Shown here piece after piece: positions 25,318 through 25,584 of a stretch of 64,000 nt of DNA. Position 1 is the first letter of the stretch; every line of letters begins with the position of its first letter. The stretch lies in the NCBI RefSeq assembly GCF_055900595.2, contig NZ_CM148325.1; one strand, 5' to 3'. The notes below the pieces were generated by a model that was given only the letters and a program-made list of their open reading frames with translations, had not been told where the DNA came from and did no database searches. Made by a program: the position numbers and the translations under genes.

Positions 25318-25321
<4 letters not shown>

Positions 25322-25584
25322 AAGAGTTTTTATTTTTATTTCACTCCACGGTCGGCGTCATACATACCCGCAAGGCGTTGCAGGCAGCGGGCATGACTTT
25401 TCGCGTCAGCGATATTCCCCGTGATTTACGCGGCGGCTGCGGGTTATGCATTTGGCTGACCTGTCTGCCCGGCGAGGAAATACAATGGGTGATCCCTGGG
25501 CAGACCGAAGCGATATATTGCCAGCAGGGCAGCAACTGGCAGTGCGTGGTGCATTACGACTCAGAAGCGTCAACCAGGCAATAA
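25318..25584 (+). CDS. small hypothetical protein (88 aa) translationally coupled to yjiL
   Basis: ATG overlaps the yjiL stop (ATGA). Cys-rich product (GGCGLCIWLTC...). No family assigned with confidence. Confidence 0.4.

Follow-up and report, generated by a model that had tools for sequence, protein, structure and literature searches.

ytiA, the gene overlapping yjiL, encodes a conserved PF11823 protein and putative Se/S carrier beside the double-cubane reductase YjiM/YjiL

The 88-aa open reading frame (ORF) that starts within the yjiL stop codon was shown to be ytiA, a real, conserved gene for an 85-88-aa protein of the family PF11823. The reading frames show it as the third, apparently translationally coupled cistron of a yjiM-yjiL-ytiA unit in the window, i.e. 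the whole stretch of 64,000 nucleotides from contig NZ_CM148325.1 that was analysed. This coupling hints that the YjiM/YjiL enzyme may handle selenium or sulfur, and we propose, with a probability of roughly 0.5, that YtiA would be a cysteine-based Se/S carrier that exchanges chalcogen with the YjiM/YjiL reductase. In the proposed mechanism, YtiA, a small ferredoxin-like protein, would hold a sulfur or selenium species on its invariant loop Cys41, as a persulfide or perselenide or bridged to Cys44 of the CxxC as S-Se-S, and would dock on YjiM. YjiL would energise electrons with ATP, and at YjiM these would reduce either the chalcogen that YtiA carries or a small molecule bound via that chalcogen; what is formed (selenide or sulfide, for instance, to be used by SelD or another acceptor) would then be released or handed on, with YtiA serving as the substrate and product relay arm of the reductase. 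The ORF itself is nothing new, as ytiA is already an annotated gene in a named family, while the link between DUF3343 (the former name of the family) and double-cubane (DCCP) or activase genes offers a modest, testable lead on the role of double-cubane reductases, among which the E. coli pair YjiM/YjiL is the most amenable to genetics.

Reading frame and conservation of ytiA

The ATG of ytiA (25318-25320) lies inside ...CCGATGAAA... as read from the window sequence, and the local sequence around the yjiL/ytiA junction is ...AAACGCCGATGAAAGAG.... The yjiL stop codon (TGA, 25319-25321) closes a 257-aa BcrAD_BadFG ORF, and the ytiA frame runs through 88 codons before the TAA at 25582-25584, which places the gene at 25318-25584 on the plus strand. 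The ATGA start/stop overlap described by an earlier, sequence-only reading of this DNA was thereby confirmed: the two genes share 4 nt (25318-25321, plus strand), a signature of translational coupling, and the same 4-nt overlap was also found in E. coli B, in Atlantibacter (locus L008) and in locus L092. Upstream of the ytiA ATG, a purine run (GAGA, positions -12 to -9; 25306-25309, plus strand) within yjiL appears Shine-Dalgarno (SD)-like; the equivalent bases are GAGG in K-12 and B and GGGG in Atlantibacter. A promoter and terminator scan around the operon gave no signal beyond the shuffled expectation. The yjiL start is ambiguous to a minor degree, with a GTG at 24548 in the mechanical ORF list and a RefSeq start 6 nt downstream at 24554 (255 aa).

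The impression that the ORF was unannotated proved wrong. Its counterpart in MG1655 is ytiA (b4715, 85 aa), and the RefSeq E. coli genomes examined label it DUF3343 or putative Se/S carrier protein, with a WP_000657672.1-like product; the best-matching E. coli strain carries an 88-aa CDS with a single residue difference from the window protein (H16 vs Q16). By megablast, the region was matched in 5,385 of 5,426 complete E. coli genomes. For 19 of the 20 genomes listed, the feature under the match was named 'ytiA', 'DUF3343 domain-containing protein' or 'putative Se/S carrier protein', and the twentieth listed match was partial, covering yjiL only. PF11823 (Se_S_carrier, formerly DUF3343) matched YtiA with 46.7 bits (gathering score 25; E=2.2e-12), aligning residues 4-59 to profile positions 2-57 of 69, and NCBIfam had no model for the protein. 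A literature search for E. coli ytiA or b4715 returned nothing relevant, the name 'ytiA' overwhelmingly denoting the zinc-regulated paralogue of ribosomal protein L31.

A word-index search returned at least 120 YtiA homologues with the same length and motif, and orthologues of 80-90 aa were named in Citrobacter, Klebsiella, Raoultella, Phytobacter and Atlantibacter. Loss of the frame in other enterobacteria had been named beforehand as the outcome that would speak against a gene; instead, the frame was kept across these five genera. Comparing the window to Atlantibacter (Nei-Gojobori), the dN/dS of ytiA was 0.15 in frame (dS ~1.9) vs 0.96 and 2.13 in the shifted frames, with a value of 0.10 for yjiL; by these ratios ytiA is evidently under purifying selection, and they ruled out an overprinting reading. 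A chance or non-functional ORF without translation, to which the weak SD in the window and promoter and terminator signals no higher than the shuffled expectation would be congenial, is extremely improbable in view of the above-threshold PF11823 match, an omega of 0.15 in frame vs about 1-2 out of frame, the shared length and motif of the homologues and a confident AF2 model. Given the conservation, that reading appears effectively refuted, since chance is excluded by the evolutionary evidence (PF11823, dN/dS) and not by ORF length alone.

Several longer proteins of 130-236 aa (P0124, P0126, P0136, P0142 and P0152) carry the YtiA sequence C-terminally or as a fragment, and are probably frameshift or read-through YjiL fusions from draft assemblies and not true fusions. 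Another protein, P0120, contains a C-terminal YjiL fragment fused to a YtiA-like sequence and looks frameshifted.

The YjiM/YjiL pair and the YtiA protein

The genes upstream of ytiA had been taken for a 2-hydroxyacyl-CoA-dehydratase-like pair, an assignment that we corrected to a double-cubane reductase system on the basis of the NF040772 scores. YjiM, encoded by the first gene of the operon (23393-24544, plus strand; RefSeq coordinates, L001), is a double-cubane [8Fe-9S] cluster reductase (class II DCCP) that reached 531.7 bits on NF040772 ('double-cubane-cluster-containing anaerobic reductase'; cut-off 350), also matched PF06050, and matched the solved Carboxydothermus DCCP (6ENO/7YYL) with a phmmer E-value of 2e-74. 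Nine Cys columns are common to YjiM and 6ENO, all of them invariant (alignment A4). The published 7-Cys motif, applied as a literal regular expression, found no match in YjiM, which we treated as a probable matter of spacing or counting convention because the 6ENO alignment shows every cysteine present. YjiL (24554-25321 in RefSeq, plus strand), the ATP-dependent reductase/activase ('archerase') of YjiM, scored 363.7 bits on TIGR00241 (cut-off 125.4) and matched PF01869 with E=2.6e-76. The operon accordingly holds both defining parts of a double-cubane system, an NF040772 catalytic subunit with the cluster cysteines and an adjoining BcrAD_BadFG ATP-dependent reductase.

A 2-hydroxyacyl-CoA dehydratase operon (HgdAB/HadBC) was considered and rejected, there being a single HGD-D gene and no alpha/beta pair, and so was an assignment of YjiM as HadC (92.9 bits vs a cut-off of 700) or HadB (22.3 vs 750). 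The HgdAB/HgdC and HadBC/HadI systems share a superfamily with YjiM/YjiL (HGD-D fold plus BcrAD_BadFG ATPase), and to our knowledge no small Cys-protein partner has been described for them. The DCCP/DCCP-R system of Carboxydothermus hydrogenoformans (6ENO, 7YYL; PMC7317905, PMC9351452) is homologous to YjiM/YjiL and, like it, is an ATP-driven low-potential reductase with an unknown physiological substrate; PMC9351452 still gives the physiological role of double-cubane reductases as unknown. However, the Carboxydothermus system has two components, whereas the E. coli-type operon has an extra small Cys protein, and YjiM, a shorter protein of 'class II', lacks the N-terminal helices that close the channel in the Carboxydothermus DCCP.

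The description of this small protein as Cys-rich was fair, with five Cys in 88 aa (5.7%; positions 41, 44, 49, 68 and 76), yet only Cys41 is invariant family-wide. Among the 31 diverse members of alignment A3, Cys41 was found in 31/31 and Cys44, which completes the CxxC, in 21/31; Phe8, Pro34 and Cys41 were the only invariant residues. The core motif D32-IPRDLRGG-C41-GL-C44 (25411-25449, plus strand; alignments A2 and A3) includes the Cys41 codon at 25438-25440, and the CxxC lies in the loop preceding strand 3. An AF2 model built from the enterobacterial alignment (pLDDT 87.5) has a ferredoxin-like fold, with a beta-alpha-beta-beta-alpha-beta core to which a C-terminal hairpin is added; loop 33-42, with Cys41 at its end, is the lowest-confidence part of the core. 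A YtiA profile run against PDB sequences gave two insignificant matches only (E 0.21 and 1.5). DUF3343 proteins linked to DCCPs in Firmicutes mostly have a vicinal CC at the Cys41 site.

YtiA has the build expected of PF11823, a small single-domain protein of about 70-100 aa with one invariant Cys (88 aa and Cys41 in YtiA), and resembles the family by HMM, by the 80-100 aa size and by the invariant Cys in a PxPRxLxxxCG loop. TusA/SirA and selenium-YedF are likewise small proteins with a single reactive loop Cys, which pass persulfide between partners. An assignment of YtiA itself to TusA/SirA (PF01206) was rejected, as it did not show the HMM match and CPxP motif of that family.

Double-cubane loci and the role of YtiA

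The claim that the small protein is a functional partner of yjiL/yjiM and not a chance ORF was supported by conservation, selection, synteny and distant DCCP/activase operons. The trio HGD-D (383 aa)-BcrAD_BadFG-DUF3343 was found in at least four unrelated neighbourhoods (the window, Atlantibacter hermannii L008, L089 and L092). In A. hermannii, it lies between TIR/TPR genes and gor/rsmJ/prlC, with the 4-nt overlap kept. The closest relatives of YtiA that are not of the Enterobacteriaceae type among 1.8 billion representatives (P0138 and P0135, ~35% identity) are both encoded in such trios (L089, and L092 with its 4-nt overlap). Genomic links to YedF, YedE and Sec-lyase-type genes are seen for other PF11823 members; in E. 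coli, ytiA is instead coupled to a double-cubane reductase activase, and no other Se/S gene (yedE/yedF or desulfurase) lies in or next to the operon. Other distant members of the family follow TusA/YedF, and on the 1-2 kb contigs of P0134, P0148 and P0176 TusA adjoins DUF3343, with nothing farther out. In Budvicia aquatica (L091, 4932-6255), the gene of a YedE-family selenium transporter overlaps the gene of a YtiA-relative DUF3343 protein by 14 nt, which gives this small-protein family a second kind of coupling partner within Enterobacterales.

A census of DCCP loci was then used to place the trio. The word-index matches of YjiM (120 listed, all 86-98% identical, the named organisms almost all Enterobacteriaceae) were too uniform for diversity, and a genome scan was therefore seeded with DCCP_Ch, a sequence rebuilt from the PDB alignment. 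With one genome per species and an alignment headed by the Carboxydothermus sequence, the scan yielded 80 loci from 80 genome records, which were searched with an HMM of alignment A3 plus YjiL/YjiM and in which Se/S genes were counted within 5 kb. An activase was found in 61/80 loci and a DUF3343 ORF in 16/80 (all E<=4e-9), 12 of the 16 directly adjoining or overlapping a DCCP or activase gene on the same strand. The commonest order was DCCP-DUF3343-activase (four Tepidibacter, Clostridium ihumii, a Tissierellia MAG, Lachnoclostridium, Mordavella and two Dorea). DUF3343 occurred in 6/8 loci with a YjiM-type DCCP (E<1e-100 to YjiM) vs 10/72 of the others (Fisher p=6e-4, from events that are phylogenetically non-independent). 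Because of phylogenetic clustering among the loci (four Tepidibacter, four Lachnospiraceae), the counts overstate the independent events. No DUF3343 gene was found within 5 kb in the remaining 64/80 loci, the partnership thus being lineage- or subfamily-specific and not general; no adjacent one was seen in Carboxydothermus, Desulfosporosinus, Pelotomaculum and most deltaproteobacterial loci of the census, nor one within 5 kb in L009, from a close relative of the structurally characterised DCCP.

Overall, 25/80 loci had at least one Se/S-trafficking gene (DUF3343, selenium-YedF, YedE or SclA-like cysteine desulfurase) within 5 kb. Selenium-YedF (TIGR03527; TusA+DsrE) immediately followed the DCCP or activase gene in five loci, all without DUF3343 (L042, L063, L069, L075 and L078; 204-225 bits vs 110), and was also nearby in L021, L023 and L076; in deltaproteobacterial, Chloroflexi and Firmicute loci, YedF takes the same operon position after DCCP/activase as the DUF3343 gene does in other lineages. 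TIGR01977/SclA-like cysteine desulfurase genes were present in 9 DCCP loci and rhodanese genes in 2. The first gene of the Lachnospiraceae clusters encodes a member of the TIGR01977 cysteine desulfurase family (433-444 bits vs a cut-off of 377), which on the selenocysteine-lyase SclA model reached 387 bits, under the cut-off of that model, and a double-rhodanese protein lies downstream of the Lachnoclostridium and Mordavella clusters. Locus L029 has the order YedE, TusA, DUF3343 fusion, carbohydrate-kinase-like protein, DCCP, FmdE, YjiM-type DCCP and activase, its YedE scoring 486 bits on TIGR04112 (vs 200); L026 also has a YedE.

The fusion in L029 (2902-3453) is a 184-aa protein; its N-terminal part matches PF11823 (85 bits), and its C-terminal extension matches no family. 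It is encoded between TusA and a carbohydrate-kinase-like/DUF1858 (redox disulfide) protein, upstream of the two DCCPs. In three Tissierellia and Lachnospiraceae loci (L048, 4803-8271; L065, 4746-8321; L077, 4734-8315), two DCCP paralogues flank DUF3343 and the activase, a long one like DCCP_Ch and a YjiM-like one of 383-396 aa, and one activase may there serve two double-cubane enzymes.

DUF3343 proteins have been proposed as Se/S chaperones (Lin et al. 2015, PMC5322559), and rows of a STRING table in the same work link DUF3343 to an activase and an HGD subunit in Slackia. In the searchable literature, the link between DUF3343 and DCCP/activase was found in these Slackia rows only, and was absent from the DCCP papers and from the preprint of Haft and Gwadz (10.1101/2022.07.06.499078), in which 955/970 DCCPs were counted in SelD-encoding genomes.

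An alternative explanation is that YtiA, as a small subunit, modulates YjiL/YjiM structurally, by regulation or through CxxC thiol-disulfide redox chemistry, with no chalcogen transfer, for example by gating electron transfer or protecting oxygen-sensitive clusters. The tight translational coupling to yjiL, which suggests stoichiometric co-production, and the CxxC in two thirds of the aligned family members (21/31) would agree with such a subunit, as would the searchable literature, which held no report of S or Se binding or transfer by any DUF3343 protein. However, the family is also coupled to YedE, TusA/YedF and Sec-lyase-type genes where no DCCP is present (PMC5322559), so that a portable carrier fits better than a dedicated subunit, and the solved DCCP:DCCP-R complexes are described as two-component (PMC9351452); we regard a non-carrier subunit as unlikely.

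YtiA could also act in cofactor maturation, supplying the bridging sulfide (or selenide) or helping to build the [8Fe-9S] cluster of YjiM with no carriage of substrate. This is consistent with the predicted Se/S carrier function of the family and the cysteine desulfurase genes adjacent in 9 loci, and a selenium-bridged cluster has been listed as a formal possibility for the DCCP-SelD link (Haft and Gwadz, 10.1101/2022.07.06.499078). A dedicated maturase would, however, be expected to follow the cluster more closely than a gene missing near 64/80 DCCP loci, including that of the Carboxydothermus-type enzyme with a solved cluster, and this absence is therefore evidence against a universal maturation role; the YedE transporters and YedF that share these loci indicate external chalcogen trafficking and not Fe-S assembly. 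We consider maturation improbable.

That YtiA is a general Se/S carrier functionally unrelated to YjiM/YjiL, merely sharing their transcript, would suit a family whose genes are found in many settings and often as multiple copies in one genome (PMC5322559), and the scarcity of DUF3343 at most DCCP loci. However, the trio stayed intact through at least four changes of neighbourhood, down to ~35% YtiA identity, and Firmicute operons place the DUF3343 gene between those for the DCCP and the activase. Both observations are hard to explain without a shared function, which makes an unrelated passenger very unlikely.

The relay reading of YtiA, as a carrier serving YjiM/YjiL, agrees with the chaperone proposal for DUF3343, the co-occurrence of DCCP and SelD, the apparent interchangeability of DUF3343 and YedF and the predicted open channel of YjiM. 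A wider and more tentative version, which we hold to be on the doubtful side, is that YjiM/YjiL/YtiA and the DCCP operons with DUF3343 or selenium-YedF may be ATP-driven reductases for Se (or S) mobilisation at very low potential, in which the carrier would present a Cys-bound chalcogen to an open class II active site. If true, this would provide the first physiological substrate class for DCCPs, explain their almost perfect co-occurrence with SelD, and join the DUF3343 Se-chaperone proposal, that co-occurrence and the open substrate channel of YjiM.

The 3' end of ytiA and the downstream insert

Codons 61-88 of ytiA (25498-25584, plus strand) diverge fast and form a haplotype unlike that of K-12 and B, as seen from dS and megablast. 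Compared to E. coli B, dS was 0.05 over codons 1-60 vs 1.84 over codons 61-80, the megablast matches of most E. coli genomes end at window position 25528, and the C-terminal tails differ (DSEASTRQ in the window vs GVSPR in E. coli B/K-12). The step in divergence inside ytiA looks like a recombination boundary tied to the AT-rich insert downstream.

Straight after the ytiA stop codon, the GC content drops from ~55% to 30-35% (window 25585-28100). The insert, absent from K-12 and B, places a gene for a 685-aa pentapeptide-repeat protein (25891-27948, plus strand) between ytiA and a yjiK-like gene, and a query spanning it was covered to at least 80% in only 635 of the 5,385 matching E. coli genomes. 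The pentapeptide-repeat gene is annotated in other genomes as the T3SS effector EspX6, and its product has a low-complexity linker, TSATSATSDTS...PEIPGAPKIPATPRIPGTPK.
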